Part shown: positions 2,785 to 59,412 of the stretch, piece after piece | Layout of the letters: the number at the start of each line of letters is the position of its first letter | How positions within the stretch are numbered: position 1 is the first letter of the stretch | Source of the DNA: Bacteroidales bacterium | GTDB taxonomy: Bacteria; Bacteroidota; Bacteroidia; Bacteroidales; VadinHA17 | Assembly: GCA_049975425.1 (NCBI GenBank) | Contig: JBNGDI010000007.1 | Span: 10,431-74,430 of the forward strand | Direction of reading: 5' to 3' | Length of the DNA stretch: 64,000 nt | The notes under the pieces: generated by a model | Seen by the model: the letters and a program-made list of their open reading frames with translations, nothing else | What the model was told of the DNA's origin: nothing | The model's database searches: none | Program-made: the position numbers and the translations under genes

Positions 2785-2889
2785 AGCAGTTATTATTTAT
2801 ATAAGAATTTAGTATCTTAAAACTGGCTTTTCAAATCCGGGAAACAGAAATCCGATAAAAACAATTCAAGTTATAAAAATATCGGAACA

Positions 2890-5241
2890 ATGCATTCAGT
2901 CAATTTCACAAATGTAGAGAGGCATTTCATTGGTGAAGCGAATATCGCACTGCAAAAAACCAATGTTCCCTACATTGTAGTGGATAATTTTCCCCTGCTT
3001 GGTCTTCTTACCTCGTTGCGGTTTCTTGAATGGGTTGCCGAAAACCCGGAAGGGGTGATCAGCCTGCCAACCGGTAAAACACCTGAGTATTTCATATTAT
3101 GGACCAGGTACCTGCTCGAGCAGTGGAATACCGGAAAAGGCAGGAAAATGCGGGACCGGTACGGCCTGGGAAAACTTTCGCGACCCGATCTCAGCCGTCT
3201 GCGTTTTGTTCAGATCGATGAATTTTACCCGATCGATTCATCCCAGCATAACAGTTTCTGTTATTACGTAAAGCATTTTTACCTCAATGGGTTCGGACTG
3301 AAAAGCCAGAATGCCATGCTGATCGATTCAGAAAAGATCCCCCTGGCGGAAGGAAAACATTACGCGGAAGTTTTTCCGGATTCGGTGGTTGATTTATCGC
3401 TCCGTTACCGTGAACCGGCCAGCAAATTCGAACAGCTTCAGCAGGAGTCCATTTTCATGATCGATAACTGGTGTTCGGAATACGAAGCCCGCATACGTAA
3501 AATGGGAGGTATCGGTTTTTTTCTCGGGGGAATCGGTCCTGACGGGCATATTGCTTTCAATACGCGGGGCTCCGATCATCATTCCACCACGCGGTTAACA
3601 TCCACCAATTTTGAAACCCAGGCGGTTGCTGCTACCGATCTGGGAGGAATCGAGATTGCCCGGAACCGTCTGGTCATTACCATTGGGTTGGAAACCATTA
3701 CCTACCATCCCGATACCACGGCCATTATTTTCGCGGCCGGTGATGCCAAAGCTCCCGTAGTAAGAAATGCTCTCGAGGAAAAGCCTGCAAATTTTCACCC
3801 TGCCTCGGCTTTGCACAAACTAAACAATGCACGTTTTTACCTCACCCGCGGAGCAGCTTCAAAACTCAGCGCAAGCATTGATCACTATTACAACACACAG
3901 GAGTGGAACGAGGAAAAAACCCAGCGTACGGTGATTGATCTGTGCCGTAAACTCGACAAATATGCCCACCACCTGACCATCGAGGATCTGCAAAGCGATC
4001 CATACTGCTCAAAAATTCCCGGTCTGAATGAAAAGACCGTTCAAACGGTGATAGATTCGGTGGTGCAAAAGATCAACCGGGGAATGAAAGGAGAAAGTCA
4101 CCAGGTATATTACCATACCGGCCCGCACCACGACGATATCATGCTGGGCATGCTGCCCCACATTCACCGTCTGCTCAGAAACGAAACCAACAAAGCCCAT
4201 TTTTCCATTCTAACTTCGGGATTTACTGCGGTTACCAACCGTTTCATAACAGAAGCGCTGGAGGACACCAAAAAATTTCTGAATGCGGGATTGATACAGA
4301 TGACCGAATATCCTGATTTTTTTGAGAAAGGGTATAAATACAAATGGGACAAGGATGTATATCATTATCTGATCAAGGTAGCTTCGGGGGAACCTTTTGA
4401 ATTAAGGCGGGGGCTTTCACACCGGATTGTCCGTTCCCTTGTGGAAATTTACGGGATCCATGATGTGAATGAGCTGAAGCAGCAAATCGACAAAATTCTC
4501 ACGGTTCTGTACAGCAGCTATGACGGAGAAAAAAATCCGGTACCTATTCAGCAATTAAAAGGGAGGATCAGGGAATTTGAAGAAGAACTGGTATGGGCAC
4601 GTTTCGGTATTCAGGTAAAGGATGTCCATCATATGCGGCTGGGATTCTATACCGGTGACATCTTCACCGAGCAGCCTTACCGGAAAAGGGATGTGGAGCC
4701 GGTGCTGAATCAAATGAAAGAGATTGACCCTACGGTGATCAGTCTGGCCTTTGACCCGGAAGGGAGCGGCCCCGACACCCATTATAAAGTGTTGCAGGTT
4801 CTTGCTGAAGCCATCAGGTTGTGGGGACAGGAGAAGGACCTTTCCGGGCTGAGGATATGGGGTTACCGCAATGTATGGCACCGGTTCCATCCAGCCGAGG
4901 CCAATGTGATTGTTCCGGTTTCGCTGAACGCCATGAGTGTAATGGACCATGCGTTTACCCACTGTTATCTCAGCCAGGTTGAGGCATCCTTCCCCAGCTA
5001 CGAATACGATGGAAAGTTCAGTGATCTGACAAGGCAAATCTGGGTGGATCAGCTCAGACAGATACAGCTGGTTCTGGGAAAAAACTTTTTCTACCAGCAT
5101 GAAAGCCCGCGAATACGTGCCACCCATGGTTTGTTGTTCTTTAAGGAAATGACGGCAGATGAATTCCTGGGGCATGCCAGAAGGCTGGAGGAAACGATGG
5201 AAGTAAGGAACTGGAGAGAAAAAGTCCGGGCCGTGAAATAA
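2890..5241 (+). CDS. nagB: Long-form glucosamine-6-phosphate deaminase: N-terminal NagB/6-phosphogluconolactonase-fold domain fused to a C-terminal domain of about 400 aa with a PIG-L/LmbE-like motif
   Basis: 783-aa ORF. The NagB signature GGIGPDGHIAFNTRGS is in the first third. YYHTGPHHDDIMLG at about residue 405 resembles the (A/P)HPDD metal-binding motif of PIG-L/LmbE deacetylases. The gene is divergent from the GH20 gene. Confidence 0.8.
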   Translation: MHSVNFTNVERHFIGEANIALQKTNVPYIVVDNFPLLGLLTSLRFLEWVAENPEGVISLPTGKTPEYFILWTRYLLEQWNTGKGRKMRDRYGLGKLSRPDLSRLRFVQIDEFYPIDSSQHNSFCYYVKHFYLNGFGLKSQNAMLIDSEKIPLAEGKHYAEVFPDSVVDLSLRYREPASKFEQLQQESIFMIDNWCSEYEARIRKMGGIGFFLGGIGPDGHIAFNTRGSDHHSTTRLTSTNFETQAVAATDLGGIEIARNRLVITIGLETITYHPDTTAIIFAAGDAKAPVVRNALEEKPANFHPASALHKLNNARFYLTRGAASKLSASIDHYYNTQEWNEEKTQRTVIDLCRKLDKYAHHLTIEDLQSDPYCSKIPGLNEKTVQTVIDSVVQKINRGMKGESHQVYYHTGPHHDDIMLGMLPHIHRLLRNETNKAHFSILTSGFTAVTNRFITEALEDTKKFLNAGLIQMTEYPDFFEKGYKYKWDKDVYHYLIKVASGEPFELRRGLSHRIVRSLVEIYGIHDVNELKQQIDKILTVLYSSYDGEKNPVPIQQLKGRIREFEEELVWARFGIQVKDVHHMRLGFYTGDIFTEQPYRKRDVEPVLNQMKEIDPTVISLAFDPEGSGPDTHYKVLQVLAEAIRLWGQEKDLSGLRIWGYRNVWHRFHPAEANVIVPVSLNAMSVMDHAFTHCYLSQVEASFPSYEYDGKFSDLTRQIWVDQLRQIQLVLGKNFFYQHESPRIRATHGLLFFKEMTADEFLGHARRLEETMEVRNWREKVRAVK

Positions 5242-11532: not shown

Positions 11533-11916
11533 TTATTCAAACAACCCTTCATCTCGTATAAGCATCAGGATAGCCGAATGGGGGACGATTACATATTTTT
11601 CCCTGTTGAATTCGATTTCGTAACCGCTTTTTTGCAGGTAAATGGCAAGATCACCTTCATGTGGCTGTAAAGGAACATATTTTACTTCCTCCGATTTCCC
11701 TTTCCAGGGCTCACTTTCGTCCATCAGGGCAGGAACGGGATAACCCGGACCCACTTTGAGCACATAACCGCTGTGAATTTTTTCGTTTTCCATCACTCCG
11801 GGAGGAAGGTACAATCCCGATTTGGTTTTTACCTGGTCGGCTTTGGGCTTGATCAGCACCCTGTCGCCCACCATGATGAACCTATTCAGGTCAGATTTGT
11901 CGGGAATAATTGCCAT
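11533..11916 (-). CDS. GroES-family co-chaperonin-like protein (long form)
   Basis: MVGDRVLIKP...KTKSGLYLP...G.VLKVGPG follows the GroES/Cpn10 pattern. It is 127 aa, longer than canonical GroES, and no groEL is adjacent. Confidence 0.65.
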   Translation of the reverse strand: MAIIPDKSDLNRFIMVGDRVLIKPKADQVKTKSGLYLPPGVMENEKIHSGYVLKVGPGYPVPALMDESEPWKGKSEEVKYVPLQPHEGDLAIYLQKSGYEIEFNREKYVIVPHSAILMLIRDEGLFE

Positions 11917-44631: not shown

Positions 44632-45345
44632 TTAGTTACTCGTACTGATGCGCTTGTCCTTCACTGCCCGGATTAGAGATTCGAAAATAATCCTGCCATC
44701 GGTAATACCTAATTCATCATCAGCAGCACGTTCAGGATGCGGCATCATACCGAATACATTTTTCCCTGCATTGCATACACCAGCAATGTTTTCTACCGAT
44801 CCGTTCGGATTAACGGCTTCAGAAATTTCCCCGTTTTTATCACAGTACCTGAACAGAATTTGATGATTCTGCCGCATGGTTATCAAATCATCATTGGGAG
44901 CATAGTAACGACCTTCTTTATGGGCAATGGGAATTTTCAGTGGTTTGTTTTTATCCAGCATGGATGTCAGGGGGGTGGCATTATTGTCCGGCACAATGTA
45001 AATGTTCTTGCATACGAACTTCTGATGGTTATTGTGCAATAGTGCTCCCGGTAATAATCCCGCTTCACATAAAATCTGGAACCCGTTGCAGATACCCAGC
45101 ACAAATCCCCCCCTCTTGGCAAATTCAATGACTTTTTCCATAATGGGAGAGTACCTGGCAATGGCTCCTGCCCGGAGGTAATCTCCGTAAGAAAAACCAC
45201 CCGGTAGTATCACGGCATCCGATTTCTTGAGGTCTGCATCCTTATGCCACAGCTCCACCACATCCTGCTCCATCACCTCATTAAGTACATAGATCACATC
45301 ATGATCGCAATTTGATCCCGGGAATATGACAACACCAAACCTCAT
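44632..45345 (-). CDS. purQ: Phosphoribosylformylglycinamidine synthase subunit PurQ
   Basis: MRFGVVIFPGSNCDHD, the nucleophile motif GICNGFQIL, and MMPHPER. Confidence 0.95.
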   Translation of the reverse strand: MRFGVVIFPGSNCDHDVIYVLNEVMEQDVVELWHKDADLKKSDAVILPGGFSYGDYLRAGAIARYSPIMEKVIEFAKRGGFVLGICNGFQILCEAGLLPGALLHNNHQKFVCKNIYIVPDNNATPLTSMLDKNKPLKIPIAHKEGRYYAPNDDLITMRQNHQILFRYCDKNGEISEAVNPNGSVENIAGVCNAGKNVFGMMPHPERAADDELGITDGRIIFESLIRAVKDKRISTSN

Positions 45346-45493: not shown

Positions 45494-46552
45494 ATGTCAA
45501 GAATTCTGAAATTCGCCACCTATTTTGTCCTGTCAGTAATTATTCTTTTCGGTCTTTTTTTGCTGGTTTTCACTTTAAAAGACTACCAGCCTGCAGAAAG
45601 GATCATAATTTATGAATCGGATAATCCGGACACGCTCAGGGCAAATCATTACCTTGCTTTAAGCTGGAATATCGGTTATGCCGGGCTGGACCAGGATATG
45701 GATTTTTTCTATGACGGGGGGACCCAGGTTCGTACCTATCGGGAAAAAACAGAACAAAACCTTCGTTTCATTGAAAATTTTCTTGTCACCCGCGATTCTG
45801 TGGATTTTATTTTCCTGCAGGAAGTTGATATAAATTCACGTCGTACATACCGGTTCAATGAATTCGACAGCATTGATAATGTACTCGAGCAATATAAGGG
45901 CTGGTTTACCCCGAATTATAAAGTGGGATTCGTACCCCTGCCCATCACACAACCCATGGGAAAAGTAAACAGCGGTCTTGCTCTCTTTTCCCTCTATGAG
46001 CCATCCCTGGTGGAAAGGTTCGATTATCCCGGGAAATATTCCTGGCCCACCCGCATCTTTATGCTTGACAGGTGCTTTCTGGTAGCACATTTCCCCCTTT
46101 CCAGCGGCAAGGAATTGCTGGTGATCAATTCTCACAACTCAGCCTTCGACGACGGCACCCTGAAGGAACAGGAAATGCAGTACCTAAGAAAATACCTTCA
46201 GGAACAACATAAGGCCGGTCATAAAATAGTGGTTGGAGCTGACTGGAATCAGAATCCACCCGGCATCAGTGCTTCCCATTTTTTATCTCCTCCTGATTTT
46301 GACAAGTTTACGCTGAACTCCATCAGCCCTGACTTTTTACCCGACGATTGGATATGGTGCTATGACCCCCGTATCCCAACCAACAGGGATCTGAGGCATC
46401 CCTACAGAGAAGGCGAAACCTATACCACCATTATCGATTTTTTTCTCCTTTCACCGGGCTTGTCTCTTTTAAAAGTTGAGGCAACAGACATGAAGTTCCG
46501 GCATTCAGATCATCAGCCAGTATTGTTATCTTTCGGTTTATCCAAAGATTAA
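45494..46552 (+). CDS. Endonuclease/exonuclease/phosphatase (EEP) family protein, membrane anchored
   Basis: N-terminal TM segment, FLQEVD, NSHNSAFD and the C-terminal SDHQPV motif. Confidence 0.8.
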   Translation: MSRILKFATYFVLSVIILFGLFLLVFTLKDYQPAERIIIYESDNPDTLRANHYLALSWNIGYAGLDQDMDFFYDGGTQVRTYREKTEQNLRFIENFLVTRDSVDFIFLQEVDINSRRTYRFNEFDSIDNVLEQYKGWFTPNYKVGFVPLPITQPMGKVNSGLALFSLYEPSLVERFDYPGKYSWPTRIFMLDRCFLVAHFPLSSGKELLVINSHNSAFDDGTLKEQEMQYLRKYLQEQHKAGHKIVVGADWNQNPPGISASHFLSPPDFDKFTLNSISPDFLPDDWIWCYDPRIPTNRDLRHPYREGETYTTIIDFFLLSPGLSLLKVEATDMKFRHSDHQPVLLSFGLSKD

Positions 46553-46572: not shown

Positions 46573-47412
46573 ATGGAGTCAGGCAAGCTGGATATTGATG
46601 CTTTTGTTTCGGTGATCCAGGAAGGTTCCGAATTCGATCTAAGTAACTATTCTTACAAATCATTGCACAGAAGGCTGGCAAGAATACTGACCGATCTTGA
46701 TACAGATATGCCATCCCTGCTCCGGAAAATGAAAAATGATCCCCTCTTCATTGAACGGATGGTTATGGAATGTACTATCAGTACAACAGAGCTCTTTCGG
46801 GACCCCCAGGTATGGAAATTAATCCGTAAGGATTTTTTAAGACAATTCCATGGGGATGAAGATATAAATATCTGGCATGCAGGATGTTCTACGGGGCAGG
46901 AGGTGTATTCCATGCTCATGCTGCTGGATGTGGAACATATGCTAAACAGGGGAAATGTTACCGCTACCGATCTCAATCCAAACTATCTGAATACTGCCAT
47001 TCAGGGATGTTATAAATACCGGTACAATTTACAATATCTTGACAATTTTGATACGGTCATGAAAGAAAATCCGGACGATCCGGATTTTCTGGAAGACATC
47101 GCCTATGATCGGTATATGATCATTGATCCCTCTGATGATACTATCCGGATGAGACAATTCCTCCTGGAGAAACCCGTCTTTTTACAGCATGACCTGGTAA
47201 AAGGAAAAAGAGTGGACTCCGGTCCGTTTGATCTGATACTGTGCAGGAATGTGATTATTTATTTCAATTTCAATCTGCAAAACAGGGTTCTTCAACTGCT
47301 GTACAGTCATTTAAAAAAGGGCGGGCTGCTGGTTCTGGGTCCTCATGAATCCATTCTTGGCAGTTTGTCGGATAAATTCGAACGTTGCCGGATGGGCTAT
47401 CTGAAAAAGTAG
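46573..47412 (+). CDS. CheR-type protein-glutamate O-methyltransferase, stand-alone
   Basis: CheR N-domain followed by TELFRDPQVW. SAM-binding motifs IWHAGCSTGQEVYSMLMLL and DLILCRNVIIYF. Confidence 0.85.
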   Translation: MESGKLDIDAFVSVIQEGSEFDLSNYSYKSLHRRLARILTDLDTDMPSLLRKMKNDPLFIERMVMECTISTTELFRDPQVWKLIRKDFLRQFHGDEDINIWHAGCSTGQEVYSMLMLLDVEHMLNRGNVTATDLNPNYLNTAIQGCYKYRYNLQYLDNFDTVMKENPDDPDFLEDIAYDRYMIIDPSDDTIRMRQFLLEKPVFLQHDLVKGKRVDSGPFDLILCRNVIIYFNFNLQNRVLQLLYSHLKKGGLLVLGPHESILGSLSDKFERCRMGYLKK

Positions 47413-47517
47413 GTAAATGCTGTCCCCGAGTAAATGATTCATTGGATGCCAGGGTATGCAATCAATCAATAATATTTTTCTATTTTTATTGTCAATGATA
47501 AATGAATACAGGCACAT

Positions 47518-50500
47518 ATGAGTGAAGAAATCCTGAAAGCCCTGATGCAGTTGTTTGCTCTGATCGTGAAACAGGATGGTGGCGTTGAACAGAGTGAAAG
47601 AAATTATGTTCTTGGATTTCTTACCAGTCAGCTCAATGATGAAGATGCCAGTGATTATATCCGGTTATTTGATGAATATGCCGGAATTGGTGACGGCCGC
47701 ATCCCATCGAAGGAAAACATCCCAACCACAGTAAAGGATTCTGTAAGGATCCTGAGCATTTGTAAAAAAATCAACCGTACCCTTACCCAGGAGCAGAAAG
47801 TGGTGGTTCTGGTAAGACTGTATGAACTGGTCAACACCGATAAGAAGTTCACCGAGCAGCGAATGAATATCATCAATACTGTGGCAGAGGTTTTCAGATT
47901 CACCAGGGAAGAGTTCACGGACATTGAACATTTTGTGAAGGAAGGGCAGCTTGAGCAGGTCGCATCGGAAAATATCATGCTGATATCAGGAAAAGATATG
48001 GATTGCCCACGTTGCAGGCATATTCGCGTTGAGTCGCTTCCCGGAACCCTTGCTGTGCTCCGGATATCCAGTGTTGACCTGTATTTCCTGAAAGTTTTTC
48101 CCGGCCACGAAGTATCGTTGAACGGTCTGCCTGTCACTCCAAACCGCATTTATCTCCTGGCCCATGGAAGCGTTATTCGCATGCCGATGGGCAAACCGGT
48201 ATATTACAGCGATATTGTTGCACATTTCTACTCCGATGTATCACGGGAGAAGATATCCTTTCAGGTAAATAATCTGACCCACGTTTTCCAATCTGGAGAA
48301 ACTGCCCTTCATCAGATATCTTTTGCTGAAGAAGAAGGGAAGCTCATTGGGATCATGGGCGCCAGCGGGACCGGAAAAACCACTCTGCTGAACATAATGG
48401 CAGGAATGGAAATCCCTACTTCCGGAGAGGTCAGGATCAATCAGATAAATCTCCACCGTGAAAAAGATAAAGTTCAGGGTATCCTGGGGTATATTCCTCA
48501 GGACGATCTGCTGATTGAGGACCTTACCGTTTTTGAAAACCTGTATTATAGCGCCCGGCTGTGTTTCAGCAACTTGTCTGAAAAAGAAATCACCCGCCGG
48601 GTATTCCAAACGCTTCATAACCTGGGATTATATGAGAAAAAAGACCTCAGGGTAGGATCACCCATGAACAAGGTGATTAGCGGAGGGCAGAGAAAACGAT
48701 TGAATATTGCACTGGAACTGATCAGAGAACCTCTCATTCTGTTTGTTGATGAACCCACGTCCGGATTGTCATCAAGAGATTCCGAAAATGTCATGGACCT
48801 GCTTCGTGAACTTTCCCTGAAGGGAAAACTAATCTTCGTAGTAATCCATCAGCCTTCCTCTGAATTGTTTAAAATGTTCGACAATGTTCTGGTTCTGGAC
48901 CAGGGCGGTTACATGGCATATTACGGCAATCCTGTGGAGGCGGTAATATATTTTAAAACGCAGGATGCTCAGATTAACAGGGATATTGGCGAGTGTCCTG
49001 TATGCGGAAATGTGAATCCCGAGCTAATATTCACCATCATGGAATCACAGGTGGTGGATGAGTTTGGACGATATAAAGACAAACGCAGAGTAACCCCGGA
49101 AAAATGGGAAAAACGTTTCAGGGAACATCACAGCCCACAGCCTGTTGAAGAAGTGGTTAAAATTCCCGCCTCACGTACCAGCCTGCCCGGAAGACTAAAA
49201 CAATTTTTTATTTATCTGATCAGGGATGTGAAATCGAAAATTGCCAATCGGCAGTATGTTGTCCTCACCCTGCTGGAAGCTCCGGTGCTTGCCCTTATAC
49301 TTTCATATATAACCAGATATATTGCCGATCCGAATTCACAGGAATATATTTTCCGGGAAAATGAGAATATTCCCATCTATATTTTCATGAGCCTGATTGT
49401 TGCTCTGTTTCTCGGACTTACACTCAGCGCGGAAGAAATTTTCAGGGACAGAAAACTGCTGAAACGTGAATCCTTTCTGAATCTCAGCCGTTTAAGTTAC
49501 CTGATGAGCAAAATTGTACTCCTTTTCAGTCTTTCAGCCATTCAAGCCCTTGTGTTTGTTCTTATCGGCAACAGTATACTGGGTATCCGCGACATGTATT
49601 TTGAATACTGGATGGCCTTTTTTACCACAGCAGCCTTTGCCAATATGCTGGGTTTAAATATTTCCGCCTCCTTTAATTCGGCTATCACCATTTACATCAT
49701 TATTCCGTTGCTGATCATTCCCATGATGGTGCTAAGCGGCGCCATGTTCAGTTTCGACAAACTGAACAGGAATATATCCGGCGTCGGGGAGGTCCCTGTA
49801 ATCGCAGAATTGATGGCAACGAAATGGAGCTATGAGGCCCTCATGGTTCACCAGTTTACCGGTAATAAGTATGAGCGTCTGCTGTACGATGTGGAAAAGG
49901 ATGAAAGCAATACGTATTTCAAATCTGTGGAATATATCCCCTTTTTACAGCAAATACTCAATAAAACGATAACGGCAATGAATCAACCGGAATTGCGTGA
50001 AGAATACACCCGGTATTTGCTGTTACTTAAAAATGAAACCGAATCGGAGCTTGAAATTAACCCTGATATCCCCTTTGCCTCGGCCGGACAGTTACACCCT
50101 GATTCCTTCCGGATAGAAACTGCCATTCTGACCAGAGAATACCTGAACAATCTGAAGGAACATTATGCCAACCTGAGCCGGCAGGCAAGTTTCCGCAAGG
50201 AAAAACTCATGGAATATTACGACCGGCAGGATCCGGACCTTTTCCGTGAATTGCGTAAAAACTATCACAATGAAAGTGTTGCGGATATCGTACGAAATGT
50301 ATATGAACGCCATCCAGTCCTGGTTTACAAGAACCGGGTGGTCAGGCAGTATGAACCGGTCTTTTTTGATCCTGAACCTTCAGGTTACCTGGATTTCAGG
50401 TCGCATTTCTATGCTCCCAGAAAATTCTTTATGGGGAAATACCGTAATACTTTTCACTTCAATATGGGGATTATCTGGATAATGAGCCTGATTTGTTATA

Positions 50501-50610
50501 TAACCCTGTATTTTGAGAGCCTGAAAAAAACAATTCAGTTCTTCGAATCTATCGGAACAAAAAAATTTAATCCGCTGGTATCTTTGGGTAAAATCAAAAT
50601 ATTTCATTAA
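47518..50610 (+). CDS. ABCG-like (NBD-then-TMD) ABC transporter with an N-terminal TerB-like repeat and an FHA-like domain
   Basis: Walker A GASGTGKTT, signature ISGGQRKR, Walker B ILFVDEPTSGLS. An ABC-2-type membrane domain spans about residues 590-790. A soluble region of about 200 aa and one final hydrophobic helix follow. The N-terminus has LMQLFALIVKQDGGVEQSER (TerB-like) and LRISSVDLYFLKVFPGHEVSLNG...GSVIRM (FHA-like). Confidence 0.9.
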   Translation: MSEEILKALMQLFALIVKQDGGVEQSERNYVLGFLTSQLNDEDASDYIRLFDEYAGIGDGRIPSKENIPTTVKDSVRILSICKKINRTLTQEQKVVVLVRLYELVNTDKKFTEQRMNIINTVAEVFRFTREEFTDIEHFVKEGQLEQVASENIMLISGKDMDCPRCRHIRVESLPGTLAVLRISSVDLYFLKVFPGHEVSLNGLPVTPNRIYLLAHGSVIRMPMGKPVYYSDIVAHFYSDVSREKISFQVNNLTHVFQSGETALHQISFAEEEGKLIGIMGASGTGKTTLLNIMAGMEIPTSGEVRINQINLHREKDKVQGILGYIPQDDLLIEDLTVFENLYYSARLCFSNLSEKEITRRVFQTLHNLGLYEKKDLRVGSPMNKVISGGQRKRLNIALELIREPLILFVDEPTSGLSSRDSENVMDLLRELSLKGKLIFVVIHQPSSELFKMFDNVLVLDQGGYMAYYGNPVEAVIYFKTQDAQINRDIGECPVCGNVNPELIFTIMESQVVDEFGRYKDKRRVTPEKWEKRFREHHSPQPVEEVVKIPASRTSLPGRLKQFFIYLIRDVKSKIANRQYVVLTLLEAPVLALILSYITRYIADPNSQEYIFRENENIPIYIFMSLIVALFLGLTLSAEEIFRDRKLLKRESFLNLSRLSYLMSKIVLLFSLSAIQALVFVLIGNSILGIRDMYFEYWMAFFTTAAFANMLGLNISASFNSAITIYIIIPLLIIPMMVLSGAMFSFDKLNRNISGVGEVPVIAELMATKWSYEALMVHQFTGNKYERLLYDVEKDESNTYFKSVEYIPFLQQILNKTITAMNQPELREEYTRYLLLLKNETESELEINPDIPFASAGQLHPDSFRIETAILTREYLNNLKEHYANLSRQASFRKEKLMEYYDRQDPDLFRELRKNYHNESVADIVRNVYERHPVLVYKNRVVRQYEPVFFDPEPSGYLDFRSHFYAPRKFFMGKYRNTFHFNMGIIWIMSLICYITLYFESLKKTIQFFESIGTKKFNPLVSLGKIKIFH

Positions 50611-50645
50611 TTTGTTGATTGCCAAAAAAAACTAAACCACCTGAA

Positions 50646-51551
50646 ATGTCACATAGCTGGTTTTATGGAATAGTAATGGTATGCTTGCTGTTTTCCTGCA
50701 GGAACAGAAGTTCAACCGATGTGGATAATGAATTCTATTTTACCGACACATTTGAAGTAGCAGACTCTTTCGGGATCCATCAGGAAGTCATGGAAGACAT
50801 CATCGAAAACCTGGCTTCCCCTGTTGAAATAGCCGGATTACTGGACAAAATCAACGCCCCCTTCTCAAATACCTACCTTGCTTCAACTGATTATCTGGAT
50901 GATTACAACACAACCTTTAAGAAAGCTGTTGCTCTGGGAGTTTTTGGTGCTGACCTGGGCTATCTGAATATGTACAATATCAATAATACCGTACTGGATT
51001 ATCTTTCTGCCGTAAAATCTCTGGCCGATGATCTGAAAGTTGGGCAGTTTTTTGATTTCAACACTTTGAAAAGACTGGCTACCAACAGTGAGAATCTTGA
51101 TTCACTCATGTTTTTGTCTGTCAGAAGCTTTAACCAGATGGACCAGTATCTCAGAGAAAACAAACGCGGGCATCTCAGCTCATTGATCATGGGAGGTCTT
51201 TGGATTGAGGGCATGCACCTCGCTACCCAGGTGGCCAAAACATCTCCCCATCCCGATCTGTATAACCGCATTGGCGAGCAGAAAATTGTTATCCCTGATC
51301 TTTTAGCTTTGCTGGGAAGGTACCGGGTAGATCCGAAATTTGAGAAGCTCTTTGCCGATCTGGAAAATGTAAAAAATTCCTTCGATAAAGTAAACATTTC
51401 CTATGAAGTGGGAGAACCCGAGATGATTGAAAAAGAAGGAAAGTTGATTTTTATTCAAAACGAAACAAGTCTTGTAGAAATGCCGGACTCTTTGTTGCAG
51501 GAGATTACCCTGAAAATTGAAGACCTTAGAAACCAATTAATCGGGATTTAA
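50646..51551 (+). CDS. Hypothetical lipoprotein, probably mostly alpha-helical
   Basis: Lipobox MSHSWFYGIVMVCLLFSC (ATG at 50646; the ORF-track start at 50619 is a TTG). It starts 36 nt after the ABC gene. No family recognised. Confidence 0.6.
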   Translation: MSHSWFYGIVMVCLLFSCRNRSSTDVDNEFYFTDTFEVADSFGIHQEVMEDIIENLASPVEIAGLLDKINAPFSNTYLASTDYLDDYNTTFKKAVALGVFGADLGYLNMYNINNTVLDYLSAVKSLADDLKVGQFFDFNTLKRLATNSENLDSLMFLSVRSFNQMDQYLRENKRGHLSSLIMGGLWIEGMHLATQVAKTSPHPDLYNRIGEQKIVIPDLLALLGRYRVDPKFEKLFADLENVKNSFDKVNISYEVGEPEMIEKEGKLIFIQNETSLVEMPDSLLQEITLKIEDLRNQLIGI

Positions 51552-51552
51552 C

Positions 51553-51984
51553 ATGAGACCCGTTCTAATGTTCATATCATTCCTTCTTCTCCCTCTGACA
51601 ATCATCGGACAGACTGATCAGAATGACCTGTTTCAGTCCTGCCGGCAACAGGCAGGTGAAGATGCAGTGTATTTGAAGGATTTTGTGGTTAAATTCCCGG
51701 CTGCCAGAGATGGCCAGGATATTCCCGTTTCGAAAAATTCGGTCATCCTTTCAAAAAACATTGTGTACCGATTTACGATCTGTTCTTCCGATCATCTTGA
51801 AGGAGAAGCCATATTGCAATTATGGGATGACCGGCGCATGCTGGTTACAAACCATGTTTCAGGAAAGGTCTATTCTTCCATAGATTTTCACTGCCAGAAA
51901 ACCGGAAGATATCATGTTCTGATATCATTCAAAGAAGGGAAAGCGGGTGAGGCTGTTTCCATCATGAGTTATATAAGAGATTAA
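51553..51984 (+). CDS. Hypothetical small secreted protein
   Basis: Signal peptide MRPVLMFISFLLLPLTIIG. The ATG lies 2 nt after the upstream stop, suggesting translational coupling. No family recognised. Confidence 0.55.
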   Translation: MRPVLMFISFLLLPLTIIGQTDQNDLFQSCRQQAGEDAVYLKDFVVKFPAARDGQDIPVSKNSVILSKNIVYRFTICSSDHLEGEAILQLWDDRRMLVTNHVSGKVYSSIDFHCQKTGRYHVLISFKEGKAGEAVSIMSYIRD

Positions 51985-53032: not shown

Positions 53033-54316
53033 TTATGAATGATACCGTTTCAGATCAAATCCAATGTCTTTTCGGAAATATTTTTTCTCAAAATGTATTT
53101 TTTCAATATTCCGGTAGCTCAATTTAAGAGATGAATCCATATTTTCTGCCAGAGCAGTAACAGCAAGTACCCGACCACCGGAGGTAACCAGTTCTTTCCC
53201 ATCACGGCGTGTACCGGCATGAAAAATGAAACAATCTGTGGTATTCTCAAGACCTCTGATGATCTTTCCTTTTTCATAATTACCGGGGTATCCGCCTGAG
53301 GCCAGAACGACAGTACTGGCTGTTTCCGGGACAACCTCGATTTTATGTTCTCTCAACTTACCTTCTCCCGCTGCAACAAGCAGTTCCAGCAAATCACTTT
53401 TAATCCTTGGAATTATCGCCTGTGCCTCAGGATCTCCCAGTCTTACATTGAATTCAACCACATAAGGATCCCCTTCCCTGTTCATCAGGCCAACATATAA
53501 AAAACCAGTATACGGTATATGCTCTTTTCGTAATCCTGTGATTGTTGGGATCACAATTCTTTTTTCCACCTTTTTTAAAAAGCCGTCGTCAATAAAGGGA
53601 ACGGGAGATATCGCGCCCATTCCTCCGGTATTCAACCCCGTATCTCTTTCTCTCGCTCGCTTATAGTCCTTGGCGCTGGGCAGGATCAAATAAGAATCCC
53701 CATCTGTTAAAACAAAAACCGATGCTTCGATCCCTCTCATGTATTGCTCAATCACCACCGTTTTACTGGCATCCCCAAACTTGCCCCCGAGCATTTCACG
53801 CAGTTCCTTTTCCGCATGATTCAGTGTATCCACAATCAAAACCCCCTTTCCTGCCGCCAAACCGTCGGCTTTTAGCACATAGGGCGGCTCCATCCGTTTT
53901 AAAAAAGAAATGCCATCTTCCACGTGCTCTGCATTCACACTGAAAGAAAAGGCCGTAGGTATTCCATACCTTTCCATAAATTCCTTGGCAAAATGCTTGC
54001 TTCCTTCCAGCATGGCGCCCGCCCTGGAAGGACCGATCAAATATATTTCCTTCAGCTTCGCATCCGATTTGAAAAAATCATAAATCCCCTCTACCAGGGG
54101 AGCCTCCGGGCCCACCACTACCATATCGATACGCCTCTCCAGCACTACCCTTTTTATGCTTTCGAAATCATCAGGTGAAACCGGAATATTATCTCCTATG
54201 GAAACCGTACCTCCATTCCCGGGAGCAATAAATAATTCATTCAGTATCGGGCTTTGTGCTATTTTCCAGGCAAGAGCGTGTTCGCGACCGCCTGCTCCAA
54301 GAATAAGTACCTTCAT
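53033..54316 (-). CDS. purD: Phosphoribosylamine--glycine ligase
   Basis: MKVLILGAGGREHALAWK N-terminus, ATP-grasp core, and GPEAPL motif. Confidence 0.95.
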   Translation of the reverse strand: MKVLILGAGGREHALAWKIAQSPILNELFIAPGNGGTVSIGDNIPVSPDDFESIKRVVLERRIDMVVVGPEAPLVEGIYDFFKSDAKLKEIYLIGPSRAGAMLEGSKHFAKEFMERYGIPTAFSFSVNAEHVEDGISFLKRMEPPYVLKADGLAAGKGVLIVDTLNHAEKELREMLGGKFGDASKTVVIEQYMRGIEASVFVLTDGDSYLILPSAKDYKRARERDTGLNTGGMGAISPVPFIDDGFLKKVEKRIVIPTITGLRKEHIPYTGFLYVGLMNREGDPYVVEFNVRLGDPEAQAIIPRIKSDLLELLVAAGEGKLREHKIEVVPETASTVVLASGGYPGNYEKGKIIRGLENTTDCFIFHAGTRRDGKELVTSGGRVLAVTALAENMDSSLKLSYRNIEKIHFEKKYFRKDIGFDLKRYHS

Positions 54317-54414: not shown

Positions 54415-55317
54415 TTACCGCAGAAAGTTACCAAATTGATAAATCAGCATGATTTCATGCGAACCACTGCTTACGGTACGTATATCAGATAGAGAAGCAT
54501 CGTAGCAGTAACCTACCAGAAAAGGCCCATGATTATAACCGGCCATAATGGCAATGGCGTCACCTGTCCGGTAAGATATTCCCAGGGAAACCATTTCGCG
54601 GTACACAGCACGTACATTAATATCTGCCTGAAACTTCCCGGCCTCGATAAATTTCATCAGCAAGGACGGTTCCACTGCAAATTCCCCTCCGGTTTCAAAA
54701 CGGTATCCGCCGTGAAGGTAATAATGCCGAACCTGTCGCTGCTCCAGCAACCTGTCTGTCTGCAGATCCACTCTCCTTTCGAACAACTGAGGTATGGCCA
54801 GACCCACATAATAATTATCTCCGTAAAAATAGGCGCCAAACGATATATCCGGAACAACCATTTTATCGGTTGCCTCAGCCAGTACAAGATCATTGGGATC
54901 TTCCAGGTTCAATGTGCCCACATCAAGAAAATACTGATAAATTAAACCCGACAAACCGAAAGCCAATGTCTGGTCGCCATCATTCAGAGGCAGATGATAG
55001 GCATAGGTAGCCTCAAAACCTGTACGACGCAATGGCCCTGCAGAATAATTAAACACTTTTGCCCCCACGCCCATATGATCGGCAACCTCCAGATGAGCCG
55101 AAAGATTCTGAATGGAAGGGGAACCTTCAAATCCCGCCCACAATTTCCGAAACGAGAATGCCAGGGGGAATCCTTCCTGACTTCCGGCTACAGCCGGATT
55201 AAGATCATACAAATGAAGCATATACTGACTGTTCTGTATCAATTGCTGTGCGCTGCAAGTTAGTGCAAACAGTCCGATGATAGCAATTAGCAGTAATTTT
55301 CTCATGCTGCGGTACAT
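54415..55317 (-). CDS. PorP/SprF-family type IX secretion system membrane protein
   Basis: Signal peptide, then AQQLIQNSQYMLHLYDLNPAVAG, the hallmark N-terminus of PorP/SprF. Beta-barrel-like alternation follows. Its start abuts the stop of the upstream adhesin gene (55317/55318). Confidence 0.85.
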   Translation of the reverse strand: MYRSMRKLLLIAIIGLFALTCSAQQLIQNSQYMLHLYDLNPAVAGSQEGFPLAFSFRKLWAGFEGSPSIQNLSAHLEVADHMGVGAKVFNYSAGPLRRTGFEATYAYHLPLNDGDQTLAFGLSGLIYQYFLDVGTLNLEDPNDLVLAEATDKMVVPDISFGAYFYGDNYYVGLAIPQLFERRVDLQTDRLLEQRQVRHYYLHGGYRFETGGEFAVEPSLLMKFIEAGKFQADINVRAVYREMVSLGISYRTGDAIAIMAGYNHGPFLVGYCYDASLSDIRTVSSGSHEIMLIYQFGNFLR

Positions 55318-58300
55318 TTACTTGATAATACTTACCGTTCCTTTAAGCAGTTCATTGCCATCTCCATAAAGATCAATAATATAGTAATAGGTTCCTGATG
55401 GCAATTCCTTGCCGCCCGAACGCCCGTCCCATGGCTCGGGGTAGCCGGGCTCGGATTCATAAACAAGGCTACCCCATGCATTAAAAATCTTCACAACAAC
55501 GCCGGGATATTCCCATAATCCGTGAATAACCCAGGTATCGTTCGAACCGTCGCCGTTGGGGGTAATGGCGTCAAATATTTCAAACTCCTCAATGTGTATT
55601 TCTTCACTTAATACCGGACCGCAACCATTTACATCGTCCAGCTCAATCTGATATATCCCGGCTGTTAGTCCCGAAAACACACCGGTATTGTTTGAAGCCA
55701 GGGGTTCGGTACCGGTTTTCAGAATATAGGTATAAGGTTCGGTTCCTCCTGTTGCTGTAATGGAAATGGTATTCCCTTCAACCACAGGGTCCCCCAGAAC
55801 CAGCTCAGCAGGTTCCGAAACGGTGAGCATTCCCCCGTCTTCTTCACAACCTATGACATCACGTACCATCACATTGTAGTCACCTGCCGGCAGGCCGGTG
55901 AACTCACTTTCCAAAACCCATGTATTCCCCCCGTCAATCGAATATTCCAGAGGCTCCCGTCCGGAGGCGGTGATGCTGATGGTCCCGTCTGTTTCACCGT
56001 GACACGTGATATCGGTTACATCCACAGTGCTTATCGTAATACCCAGCGGATCAGTAAGTGAAAGCATGCTTCCGCTGGTTTCGCACCCGTTTGCATCCTT
56101 TACTTTTACCTGGTAGTTCCCCGAACAAAGTCCTGTAAATTCACCGGATATCTGCCAGGTGGATCCGTCATCAATAGAATACTCATAAGAAGGAGTGCCT
56201 CCCCCGGCCGAAAGCGAAATGGAACCAGTGCATTCGCCAGCACACTCCGGATCGGTAAATTCTTCCGAAACCATCACCAGCTCGGCTGGTTCTGTAATAG
56301 CTCCTTCAAAGGTTTCTGAACAGTTATTGGCATCGGTAATAAGAAGAGTATAATCACCGGCACATGCTCCGGTAAGGTTCTTGCTTGTTCCCACCAAACT
56401 GCCTCCTCCGTCATACCATTCATAGCTGTAAGGAGTAGTCCCTCCCGATACGGTCATGACAATGCTTCCGTCACAATCACCGAAACAATCCACATGATCA
56501 GGCACAGAGCTGTACTGAATGGCCGGGGGCTCTGTCACCGTATAGGGCCCGAACTGCCGTGAACAACCGTTTTCATCAGTAACGGTAACCCGATAGTTGC
56601 CGGCTTCAAGAAAACGGGCGGTAAGACTGGTTTGCGCAGCCGGATCGTCCCATTGCACACTCAGCAAACCAGTACCCCCTGAAACGGCAACGGTTAGCTC
56701 CCCCTCAAGGTCACCGTTACATGGGTTATTCACGGTAGAAACAAGATTACATGAAATTACCGGAGGCTGGTCAATAGGAATGTTGTTCACTTCAGCCGTA
56801 CAGCCATTGGCATCGGTTACCGTTACAGAATAATTACCGGGACAAAGTCCTGCAACATCCTTGCTGGTGGAGGTGAATCCGGAAGGTCCAACCCATGCAT
56901 AGCTGTAAGGAGGAGTACCTCCGGAAACCAGTGTGAGATCAATTTTCCCGTTACAGGAACCATAACAGGTAACATCTGTTTTATTGTAAGTTATGGAAGG
57001 CAGGCTGGAAGGTTCATCAATGGTCACCTGAACGGTGGAGGGAGAACCGGGGGGTGTTCCGTCATCAGTAACAGTTACTGCATAGGTGCCGGCCGGAGCA
57101 TCAAGCAGTTCATGGGTGGTACTTACCACCAGTCCGCCGGGCACGGTAGTCCATTCATAAGTCAGGCTCCCCACGGCATTTTCCGTACAGACCCTGGCGT
57201 ATCCGTCATTCCCTCCATAACACGATACATCGTTCTGCTCACATATATAAGCAAAAAACAGATATCCGTCGTCAACAGTGATGATGGTATCTGCCGTACA
57301 TGTATTCGCATCGGTTACCGTTACGGAATAATTACCTGCATCACAAAGGCTGGTCAGGTCTTCATCGGTGGAAGTAAAGCCCGATGGACCAGACCAGGAA
57401 TACGCATAACCGGGTGTGCCACCGTTCACCTGCAGATCAATGGCTCCGTTGCATCCGGCTGGCAGGACAATATCCGTTACAGAAGTCCCTTCAAAGGTAA
57501 TCGGAAGAGGTTCATTCACTGAAAAATTCTCCACACCTGTACATCCATTGCCATCCGTTACTGTAACAGAATAATCACCGGCTGTCAGTCCTGTTTGGTC
57601 TTCAGTCTCGGTACTGACCCCCTCTCCTGTCCAGGCAAAGGCATAAGGAGGGGTTCCTCCGCTTACGGTAATATCAATGGCCCCGTTGTTGCCTCCGTAA
57701 CAGCTGACATCAGTAATGTCATATGCGATAGTGACAGGTTCTGGCTCTAAAATTTCAATGTTGACCACTTCCGTCGAATCCCGCACATCTTTTACAGTAA
57801 CCGTATAATCTCCGGCTGCCAGGCCGGTAGCAATGGAATCGTTCAGCATGGCATCATGACTCCATTCATACGTAAAAGGATATACACCAAAGTAAGGTGT
57901 AACAATGATTTCGCCGTCAGACCCCCCGTTACAGGTAACATCCTGTTTGTGCGAAATTGCTACAGAAAAGCCATACTCATAATGGGCTACAAAACCCATA
58001 TACATCGTGGGGTTGGGATTTGACAATGAAAACTCCCCGATTTCAAGGGGATTGGAACGTGAGCGTCCAATAATCAGGGTTTGTCCGTTCTGGTCATAGG
58101 CTACACCCTGTCCTTCATCATGTTCGGTTCCCCCGATACCCTGTCCTCCAACCGGATTACCGTTGCGGTCGAAAATAGCAAACCCTGTGTTCACGTCAGT
58201 GGGCCCGCTGCTCCTCAGGGTATCCTGATTAATCACCAGTTCATCTGCATACATACCGGCAAACTGGACCATTTCCTGAAAAATAGCCAGGCCGTAAGCA

Positions 58301-59412
58301 TTGTCAGCATTGGGAGTTCCTTCCCTTCTGACCCATTGCAACGTTCCCGATGAGCTGTATTTACAGATATAGAAATCAACGCCCCCGATAGAAGCCAGTG
58401 GTTCAGCACTTAAAGTAGCAGTACTGTCAAATACAATGGGATCCGATTCTGTCTTTCCTGAAATATACAAATTACCATATTTACTTATTGTAGAAGAGTT
58501 TACATGGTCAAAAGCCGGGCCCCCTGCCGTTCTTCCCCATATATAATTGAGGTTATCGTCTACACGCATCAGCATAATATCCATAAAGGCAACATCCCCT
58601 GTAGAAGTGGTAAACAAAGTGTTTTCCCCTCCGTCCTGCAACTCCCCCAGGATATCACCGGTTATATAATACCCTCCGAAAAGGCAGGGGTGAACCCTCC
58701 TGAAGGCAGATTGCTGTATAGTAGGGATAAACCTGCTGATAGCCTGGAAACTGCCGGCAGTATCGTATTTGGCGATAAACAGGTTTTTGTTTCCTGTAAA
58801 GGGGAGGGTACCGCCTGTACCCCCGTCATCATAGTAGAAGGGATCGGATTTATAATTGCCGATAATAACCATTAAATCATCCTTGAAATCTATGTCCTGC
58901 AACCGGTCATTGTGATTACCCCAGAACAACCTTTTTGCCCATACAATCGTACCATCGGGCTTATATTTTGCCACAAAGGGCTCCCATCTGCCAGAGGTGG
59001 AGTTGTTCAGTACCACATTCTCGGCGGGATTTGTTGATTCAATGGTAACAGAAGCCCCTTTGAATGCACCTACTACGTAAACATGTCCGCTCTTGTGAAT
59101 TCTGAAACTACCAATCTCATCGTCATCTGCCCCTCCACACCCAACGATCCACAAAATATTTCCATTTTCATCGAATTTAGCCAAAAAAGCATCCTGACTT
59201 CCATAAGAATTCAAATCCTGGGACTGAACTGTAAGAGGGGTCCCTCCCTCCCATGTCCCTGCTACATAAACATGATTGTTGGCATCTGTTTGTATATGTA
59301 CCGTGCCGACATCACCGGAAGCAGTGAATTGTTCAGTCCATGACCATTTTTGCGCGGTCAGATGAAGACTGAAACAAATAAATAATCCGATAGCCAGTGA
59401 AAAAGTTCTCAT
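55318..59412 (-). CDS. Giant cell-surface protein: N-terminal beta-propeller-like repeats, about 10 SprB-type repeats, and a C-terminal gliding-motility (type B) T9SS sorting domain
   Basis: 1364 aa with a signal peptide. The Cys-containing repeat DV(T/S)C.G..(D/N)G.I...V.GGT.PY.Y.W recurs. The C-terminus AITPNGDGSNDTWVIHGL...GTYYYIIDL matches the CHU_C/type B CTD pattern. Confidence 0.9.
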   Translation of the reverse strand: MRTFSLAIGLFICFSLHLTAQKWSWTEQFTASGDVGTVHIQTDANNHVYVAGTWEGGTPLTVQSQDLNSYGSQDAFLAKFDENGNILWIVGCGGADDDEIGSFRIHKSGHVYVVGAFKGASVTIESTNPAENVVLNNSTSGRWEPFVAKYKPDGTIVWAKRLFWGNHNDRLQDIDFKDDLMVIIGNYKSDPFYYDDGGTGGTLPFTGNKNLFIAKYDTAGSFQAISRFIPTIQQSAFRRVHPCLFGGYYITGDILGELQDGGENTLFTTSTGDVAFMDIMLMRVDDNLNYIWGRTAGGPAFDHVNSSTISKYGNLYISGKTESDPIVFDSTATLSAEPLASIGGVDFYICKYSSSGTLQWVRREGTPNADNAYGLAIFQEMVQFAGMYADELVINQDTLRSSGPTDVNTGFAIFDRNGNPVGGQGIGGTEHDEGQGVAYDQNGQTLIIGRSRSNPLEIGEFSLSNPNPTMYMGFVAHYEYGFSVAISHKQDVTCNGGSDGEIIVTPYFGVYPFTYEWSHDAMLNDSIATGLAAGDYTVTVKDVRDSTEVVNIEILEPEPVTIAYDITDVSCYGGNNGAIDITVSGGTPPYAFAWTGEGVSTETEDQTGLTAGDYSVTVTDGNGCTGVENFSVNEPLPITFEGTSVTDIVLPAGCNGAIDLQVNGGTPGYAYSWSGPSGFTSTDEDLTSLCDAGNYSVTVTDANTCTADTIITVDDGYLFFAYICEQNDVSCYGGNDGYARVCTENAVGSLTYEWTTVPGGLVVSTTHELLDAPAGTYAVTVTDDGTPPGSPSTVQVTIDEPSSLPSITYNKTDVTCYGSCNGKIDLTLVSGGTPPYSYAWVGPSGFTSTSKDVAGLCPGNYSVTVTDANGCTAEVNNIPIDQPPVISCNLVSTVNNPCNGDLEGELTVAVSGGTGLLSVQWDDPAAQTSLTARFLEAGNYRVTVTDENGCSRQFGPYTVTEPPAIQYSSVPDHVDCFGDCDGSIVMTVSGGTTPYSYEWYDGGGSLVGTSKNLTGACAGDYTLLITDANNCSETFEGAITEPAELVMVSEEFTDPECAGECTGSISLSAGGGTPSYEYSIDDGSTWQISGEFTGLCSGNYQVKVKDANGCETSGSMLSLTDPLGITISTVDVTDITCHGETDGTISITASGREPLEYSIDGGNTWVLESEFTGLPAGDYNVMVRDVIGCEEDGGMLTVSEPAELVLGDPVVEGNTISITATGGTEPYTYILKTGTEPLASNNTGVFSGLTAGIYQIELDDVNGCGPVLSEEIHIEEFEIFDAITPNGDGSNDTWVIHGLWEYPGVVVKIFNAWGSLVYESEPGYPEPWDGRSGGKELPSGTYYYIIDLYGDGNELLKGTVSIIK
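55700..57950 (-). repeat. Coding tandem array of about 10 SprB-type repeats (period about 80-95 codons) inside the adhesin gene; boundaries approximate
   Basis: The recurring C.G...G.I...(V/A)SGGT.PY.Y(.)W motif was read in the translation. The DNA copies have diverged. Confidence 0.7.

Follow-up and report, generated by a model that had tools for sequence, protein, structure and literature searches.

The 64-kb window studied here (the whole stretch of 64,000 nucleotides that was analysed) comes from an uncultured Bacteroidales bacterium and contains a gene for a CheR-type methyltransferase directly upstream of the gene for an ATP-binding cassette (ABC) transporter and two genes for exported proteins. 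This locus is a trimmed member of a wider, undescribed family of signalling-to-export operons and not a self-contained four-gene system. In most related loci the transporter is preceded by genes of a SiaABC-type partner switch and, in many of them, further upstream by a fuller methylation cassette, of which the window has kept one methyltransferase, CheR1. Gene content, synteny, a transporter phylogeny that points to a single loss, purifying selection and domain folds carry this account. As a full explanation, in which this reduced form of a conserved Bacteroidales operon keeps a CheR1 that likely acts on the helices of GAF/PAS sensors encoded elsewhere, it is our first choice, held tentatively at a little below an even chance. 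The elements of the locus are as follows.

46573..47412, + strand: predicted CheR1-type S-adenosylmethionine (SAM)-dependent protein-glutamate methyltransferase (PF01739, E 4.8e-34)
47413..47517, + strand: CheR-transporter spacer of 105 nt, holding a conserved AT-rich block
47518..50610, + strand: TerB/FHA-like/ABCG-type half-transporter of 1030 aa (Pfam, NCBIfam and fold model)
50646..51551, + strand: lipoprotein of 301 aa, no known family (lipobox)
51553..51984, + strand: small exported protein of 143 aa, no known family (signal peptide, three invariant Cys)

The original prediction, made from the letters of the window, had placed these four genes on the + strand at the coordinates above, and the open reading frame (ORF) listing contains all of them. 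It gave intergenic gaps of 106, 36 and 1 nt. The last of these, between the lipoprotein and small protein genes, stands; the first two are counted as 105 nt (CheR to transporter) and 35 nt (transporter to lipoprotein, measured from ATG 50646, the start favoured by orthologues).

The exporter triad and its upstream cassette in related loci

A total of 33 full-length transporter orthologues were found in Bacteroidales metagenome-assembled genomes by scanning species-representative genomes, with tblastn mapping of the surrounding genes. Together with seven further contigs found with the CheR query, the comparison set comprises about 40 related loci. The transporter, lipoprotein and small protein genes form a triad in 30 of the 31 assessable loci, in agreement with the earlier proposal that these three make one module; the two latter genes lie 3' of the transporter wherever downstream DNA suffices, with L031 as the exception. 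SiaA-SiaB-SiaC are encoded directly upstream of the transporter in 26 of the 33 loci. The cassette of the relatives runs in the order CheR, CheR, CheB (PF01339, 1e-46), GAF, GAF-PAS-PAS-SpoIIE, DUF6272, SiaC (PF09345, 3e-41) and ABC, where the DUF6272 protein matches SiaB (6KKO_A, E 4.6e-15) and the 127-aa PF09345 protein matches SiaC (6KKO_C, E 6e-18). The four genes had been taken as a whole system, and this part of the prediction does not hold: relatives carry a cassette of about 11 genes, CheR1-CheR2-CheB-GAF-SiaA-SiaB-SiaC-ABC-Lipo-Small, of which the window has a cut-down form. The 'orphan' state of its CheR is therefore secondary.

Several layouts are found upstream of the transporter. 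CheR1-CheR2-CheB-GAF is present in nine loci, and a single CheR with CheB and GAF in five, where the CheR types as CheR2 in four and is too diverged to type in L027. Five loci have CheR1 divergently transcribed beside a PP2C-less sensor paralogue, and six have the Sia genes only. CheB is encoded in 14 loci, always with a CheR gene immediately upstream, which is of the CheR2 type in 13 of them (L027 untyped); across the related loci, the window and the CheR1-only loci, CheB never occurs where the sole CheR is CheR1. No methyl-accepting chemotaxis protein (MCP), CheA or CheW was found near CheR1 among the genes checked in the approximately 40 related loci. CheR is linked to the transporter in 17 of the 33 full-length transporter loci and in the seven CheR-query contigs, and the idea of chance adjacency is not upheld by this survey of synteny.

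The related loci share homologues of SiaB, SiaC and the PP2C-bearing SiaA with the SiaABCD system of Pseudomonas aeruginosa (PMC8457831, PMC7647112; PDB 6KKO). Their Sia genes stand directly upstream of the transporter, which takes the position of SiaD in Pseudomonas. However, the output gene in Pseudomonas is that of a diguanylate cyclase, and here it is that of an ABC exporter; the window itself differs further from SiaABCD in having no SiaA, SiaB or SiaC within 64 kb.

Two variants of the cassette were observed in addition. In L018, L019, L022, L026 and L029 (approximately 1600-4200 of each), a paralogue of the SiaA sensor is encoded divergently to CheR1, upstream of SiaABC and the transporter; it comprises an MCP-like N-terminal sensor, a HAMP-like region, GAF, a Glu-pair helix and two PAS domains without PP2C, and these loci have neither CheB nor CheR2. 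In addition to the SiaB-SiaC pair on the transporter side, L008 encodes another, diverged pair (30% and 44% identity) at 170-1074, ahead of CheR1.

The reduced layout of the window is shared with its closest relatives. In the window, L001 and L002, the immediate upstream neighbour of the transporter is CheR1; in L012 and L030 this place is taken by the gene of a membrane-anchored endonuclease/exonuclease/phosphatase-family (EEP) protein, and the locus lacks CheR. The flanks purQ ... DUF6427-purD-PorP are common to these five loci, and L013 keeps EEP-CheR1-CheR2-CheB-GAF-SiaA-SiaB-SiaC-ABC. Intermediate relatives came from a protein search with CheR, a metagenome scan with CheR having given near-identical relatives only. 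L045, with a CheR 61% identical to that of the window, reads purQ-EEP-CheR-ABC-301 aa-143 aa-DUF6427-purD-PorP-SprB; L046 and L047 (54%) have the same layout minus EEP, and L048 (74%) has a TerB-bearing ORF after CheR.

In a maximum-likelihood tree of the transporters, the CheR1-only genomes form a clade with support of 100, which is sister to L012 plus L030 with joint support of 100. No remnants of the deleted CheR2-to-SiaC genes are left in the spacer or in the 64-kb window, even at E 10, and tblastn of the relatives' CheB, CheR2, GAF, SiaA, SiaB and SiaC against the window gave no match. The simplest history takes two events: a single deletion of about 5.9 kb, from CheR2 to SiaC, in the group's ancestor, and a later loss of CheR1 on the L012/L030 branch. 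Since four or more lineages share the layout, even where CheR is only 54% identical, the adjacency of CheR and exporter is inherited and stable and not due to chance.

Proteins of the locus

The original prediction described a complete stand-alone CheR. The SAM domain is borne out (PF01739, 117.9 bits against a cut-off of 27), but the N-domain (CheR_N, PF03705) scores 19.1 bits, below its cut-off of 27, although the alignment to 5FTW begins as early as chain residue 16 and takes in both domains. Residues 20-263 align with Bacillus subtilis CheR 5FTW (E 5e-20), the SAM-site motifs AGCSTGQE, ATD and CRNVIIYF are preserved in this alignment, and an insertion of about 20 residues (roughly 160-185) divides the Pfam match in two. 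The window CheR appears, at sequence level, to have the same two-domain fold as canonical CheR (Salmonella 1AF7/1BC5, B. subtilis 5FTW) and shares its SAM-binding motifs; it differs in its low identity and in the extra segment of about 20 residues. The genetic context differs as well: neither the window nor the genes checked in related loci include MCP, CheA or CheW, and the window has no CheB or CheY, CheB being found in the 14 related loci. A Pfam scan of 46 of the 50 window ORFs of at least 120 aa (purQ, purD, PorP/SprF and SprB were left out) gave no match to MCP, CheA, CheW, CheB, CheY, histidine kinases or receivers, and the absence of the first five from the window had been recognised correctly. 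The window covers 46 kb upstream and 12 kb downstream of the locus.

The window CheR is 46-49% identical to CheR1 of the full operons and 27% identical to CheR2, and is on this account the CheR1 orthologue. Among the window, L001 and L002 (dS 0.11-0.34), its ratio of nonsynonymous to synonymous substitution rates (dN/dS) is 0.11-0.13, equal to those of the transporter (0.10-0.12 in the same comparison) and of housekeeping neighbours. CheR is under purifying selection. Compared to the transporter, CheR1 evolves somewhat faster in the CheR1-only and divergent layouts and at an equal or slower rate in full operons; therefore the constraints on CheR1 have changed, not vanished.

An AT-rich block lies at about 47462-47495 (...AATATTTTTCTATTTTTATTG...) inside the spacer between CheR and the transporter. 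Over roughly its last 60 nt the spacer hardly varies among these three genomes (window, L001, L002) in spite of a dS of about 0.3, and the block recurs in L045 and L046. It could be the transporter's own promoter.

The transporter is composed of TerB (1-137), an FHA-like beta-sandwich (approximately 150-245), a nucleotide-binding domain (NBD, 246-480), an ABC-2 membrane domain (approximately 560-800), a C-terminal region of about 200 aa without assigned fold and a terminal hydrophobic helix. TerB (PF05099, residues 8-136, E 1.8e-10) scores 41.6 bits, above the gathering threshold of 24.4, and Pfam places ABC_tran at 264-415 (1e-30) and ABC2_membrane at 562-777 (1.2e-19). The ABCG/White-type model TIGR00955 of NCBIfam matches with E 4e-76, yet under its own trusted cut-off. 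The top PDB sequence matches are ABCG1/2/5 and ABCA, with ABCG1 aligning over 261-750. From these profiles the protein is predicted to be an ABCG/White-type (ABC-2) half-transporter with the NBD ahead of the membrane domain in one polypeptide.

For residues 138-250, FHA (PF00498) finds no Pfam or PDB profile match even at E 10. An AlphaFold model of this segment, built with 25 orthologues, is beta-rich with a predicted local distance difference test (pLDDT) score of 83.8, and its best 50 Foldseek matches in the PDB are all FHA domains, including those of Mek1, Rad53, KIF1A, CEP170 and EssC. The similarity is moderate (E 2e-3 to 7e-2, template modelling (TM) score 0.35-0.53), with 5yyz_A as the best match (E 2.1e-3, TM 0.52). 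Among the 25 orthologues, Asn (LNG) alone is invariant from the phosphothreonine-binding set Arg / Ser-x-x-His / Asn. We call the segment FHA-like by fold only, because its modelled structure matches FHA and sequence methods do not. In the original label of a TerB/FHA-ABCG transporter, the TerB and ABC parts agree with the profiles, and the FHA part lacks sequence support and is seen in the fold. All transporter segments have dN/dS of 0.06-0.15, with 0.06-0.13 for TerB and the FHA-like segment. The latter (window 47929-48252, residues 138-245) shows a dS of 0.57-0.62 between the window or L001 and L002, about twice that of the other transporter segments (0.15-0.29) for the same pairs, with dN/dS still about 0.09; a recombination patch or a local mutation-rate effect could account for it.

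A known counterpart is the Mycobacterium tuberculosis exporter Rv1747, an ABC protein with FHA domains that is under the control of the kinase PknF (PMC3138270). Both are NBD-first ABC-2/ABCG-like half-transporters with N-terminal FHA-type domain(s). Rv1747 is encoded beside its regulator (PMC3138270), a part that CheR would play in the window. However, Rv1747 has two sequence-recognisable FHA domains that bind phosphothreonine (PMC3138270), whereas the window transporter has one TerB and a beta-sandwich that is FHA-like by fold, with no evident Arg/Ser/His phospho-binding set. The neighbouring gene encodes a Ser/Thr kinase in Rv1747 and a methyltransferase in the window.

The two exported proteins could not be assigned to a family, as had been stated from the sequence: neither has a Pfam, NCBIfam or PDB sequence-profile match. 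The lipoprotein has the lipobox LLFSC (MSHSWFYGIVMVCLLFSC), and Cys18 is nearly invariant in the alignment of 23 orthologues. The AlphaFold model that had been suggested as a check (50646-51551; pLDDT 78.8) shows a helical bundle, then a sheet of four strands and a last helix; Foldseek gave no significant match for it in the PDB (best E 0.19), and no family was gained from it. A likeness to the helical bundles of EfeO/Algp7 was rejected (E 0.4-0.8, low probability). The small protein has a signal peptide and three Cys that are invariant in the orthologue alignment. Between L047 (4460-5365) and L046 (12124-13029), the CheR proteins are identical, and the lipoprotein is intact at 301 aa in one contig and split into ORFs of 124 and 147 aa in the other, which is either a frameshift variant or an assembly error.

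Candidate substrates of CheR1 and competing explanations

We propose that the core of the system would be an ABCG-type exporter with a cytoplasmic regulatory N-terminus of TerB and FHA-like domains and two dedicated extracytoplasmic partners, the lipoprotein and the small, putatively disulfide-containing protein. The best guess for the exported substrate, from the ABCG/ABCA relationship, would be a lipid or another envelope component. The ancestral exporter was probably preceded by a partner switch of SiaA (GAF-PAS-PP2C phosphatase), SiaB (kinase) and SiaC (phosphoprotein), and further upstream by CheR1, CheR2, CheB and a membrane GAF protein. The window clade would descend from an ancestor that lost CheR2 through SiaC, with CheR1 left about 100 nt upstream of the exporter. 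CheR1 would still be a working enzyme and, in the manner of Bacillus cereus RsbM, would act with no esterase encoded at the locus; its likeliest substrates would be signalling helices with Glu pairs in GAF/PAS sensors that other parts of the genome encode, and these sensors may still feed into the retained regulatory N-terminus of the exporter. Methylation by CheR1, its substrate and its link to export are what we infer.

As a precedent, RsbM is an unpaired methyltransferase that acts on the S-helix of the CHASE3-HAMP-GAF sensor kinase RsbK (PMC4574943). Like the window CheR, which has no methylesterase or MCP gene within the 64 kb, it is a CheR-type enzyme without cognate methylesterase or MCP, and its target is a signalling helix after GAF in a membrane sensor that controls a PP2C/partner-switch pathway (PMC4574943). 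These ingredients occur in the relatives of the locus too, which encode GAF domains, a PP2C phosphatase and a partner switch; in their SiaA and its paralogues, GAF is followed by a conserved Glu-pair-rich helix (...NEEELRQNAEEM..T.EELE...) that recalls the methylatable S-helix of RsbK. There are differences as well. RsbK is encoded next to RsbM with sigma-B as output (PMC4574943). In the window no sensor gene is nearby and CheR stands next to an ABC exporter gene; CheB and a second CheR belonged to the ancestral cassette, and any methylation is presumed.

Several points weigh against this explanation. No substrate of CheR1 was identified in the 64-kb window or in the related loci, and no GAF/PAS sensor with a Glu-pair helix is encoded in the window; the sensors encoded in trans, with their helices, are posited. 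The faster evolution of CheR1 in the reduced and divergent layouts could be partly relaxed constraint. Transcription of the locus as an operon is likewise presumed. Gene order around the locus is conserved generally, and therefore adjacency alone says little, within the clade, on whether CheR1 and the exporter are functionally tied. In the sister lineage of L012 and L030 there is no CheR at the locus, so the exporter needs no locally encoded CheR1.

Alternatively, CheR1 might methylate the exporter itself, at a Glu in the TerB/FHA-like N-terminus or in another cytoplasmic part, and thereby set export activity directly; the partner switch would be dispensable in the window clade because CheR1 would act on the exporter. 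We consider this rather unlikely, though the transporter triad is the sole element common to all three CheR1-bearing layouts (full, divergent and CheR1-only), and at least four lineages have kept CheR1 as the immediate upstream neighbour of the transporter since losing the switch. The N-terminal domains of the exporter are also under purifying selection without a local SiaC, and TerB is the best-conserved regulatory part. Conserved Glx pairs occur at E3E4 (all orthologues) and E113Q114 (91% of orthologues), both within TerB, and at E639E640. However, the transporter has no match to the MCP-type methylation consensus, its Glx pairs are just as well conserved where CheR1 is missing, and loci with and without CheR1 cannot be told apart at any alignment column; the N-terminus is also retained in L012 and L030, which lack a CheR gene here. 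With neither a consensus nor a residue that tracks CheR1, the original suggestion of the transporter N-terminus as target gained no support and keeps a low probability. Its strongest version, in which CheR1 methylates a Glu of the TerB/FHA-like N-terminus and the window clade is the minimal natural form (methyltransferase and transporter, without partner switch and without esterase) of an ABC transporter gated by carboxyl-methylation, is unlikely.

It is similarly improbable that CheR serves a cluster elsewhere in the genome, either a relocated CheR2-CheB-GAF-SiaABC set or one of MCP/CheA/CheW, so that its position would be only historical. A functional CheR, as judged from dN/dS, would conform to this, and selection on the exporter N-terminus suggests that a regulator still exists somewhere. 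But CheR1 orthologues are consistently tied to the exporter locus, with no MCP, CheA or CheW near them in the approximately 40 related loci, and the window, with 46 kb before the locus and 12 kb after it, contains no such cluster, nor do the flanks of L042-L046 that were covered (about 4 to 10 kb each side). It is highly improbable that CheR has lost its function and merely survived the deletion, or that it stands here by chance. In favour of this reading are the deletion of about 5.9 kb that left CheR behind, the complete loss of CheR in the sister lineage, and a rate of CheR1 evolution, relative to the transporter, that is higher here than in full operons. Against this, the frame is intact in every lineage, the SAM motifs are kept, dN/dS is 0.11-0.13 and the gene is retained down to 54% identity, on which grounds decay was rejected; the linkage to the exporter recurs in three independent layouts, which speaks against a chance neighbour.

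Neighbouring genes and significance

The following genes flank the locus, those other than EEP being named from Pfam families recorded for the L045/L046 orthologues.

44632-45345: purQ
45494..46552, + strand: membrane-anchored EEP protein (PF03372, E 2.5e-10), 20 nt upstream of CheR
53033-54316: purD
54415-59412: PorP/SprF and SprB genes

The EEP, CheR, ABC, lipoprotein and 143-aa genes are five co-directional genes in the ORF listing, next to which come the convergent DUF6427 and purD. The window clade, L012, L013, L030 and L045 have EEP ahead of CheR1 or of the transporter; L046 and most full operons lack it. It is a syntenic neighbour, possibly co-transcribed with CheR, and probably lies outside the core of the module. 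The genes for CHU_C, PorP/SprF and SprB in the window fit the earlier impression of a gliding Bacteroidota with a type IX secretion system. For the PorP/SprF gene (54415-55317, - strand), dS is about 0.55 against L002 and 0.13 against L001. The former value far exceeds those of neighbouring genes in that comparison and points to an exchange of alleles at the SprB/PorP adhesin locus. At 11533-11916 (- strand), a 127-aa ORF matches only positions 3-46 of 93, the first half, of the Cpn10/GroES profile and may be a truncated or divergent co-chaperonin-like gene.

No description of a link from CheR or SiaABC to an ABC exporter in Bacteroidota was found in the literature, and the view that the arrangement is not a described system stands. 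Bacteroidales glide or are non-motile. CheR-type enzymes are nevertheless present in thousands of their genomes (2943 homologues at E 1e-30 or better), and the locus and its relatives tie such enzymes to a phospho-switch and an uncharacterised envelope exporter. The window clade is a natural deletion experiment, in which CheR2, CheB, GAF and SiaABC proved losable and CheR1, the exporter, the lipoprotein and the small protein persisted. The exporter triad thus persists without a locally encoded switch, and one of two methyltransferases is kept without an esterase. CheR1 may be a one-way modifier like RsbM, CheR2 and CheB may form a reversible pair, and regulation may converge on the exporter N-terminus. 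Should methylation control the transporter, directly or via sensors, carboxyl-methylation signalling would extend beyond motility, and a handle would be gained on an exporter family found across Bacteroidales of gut, sediment and sludge.

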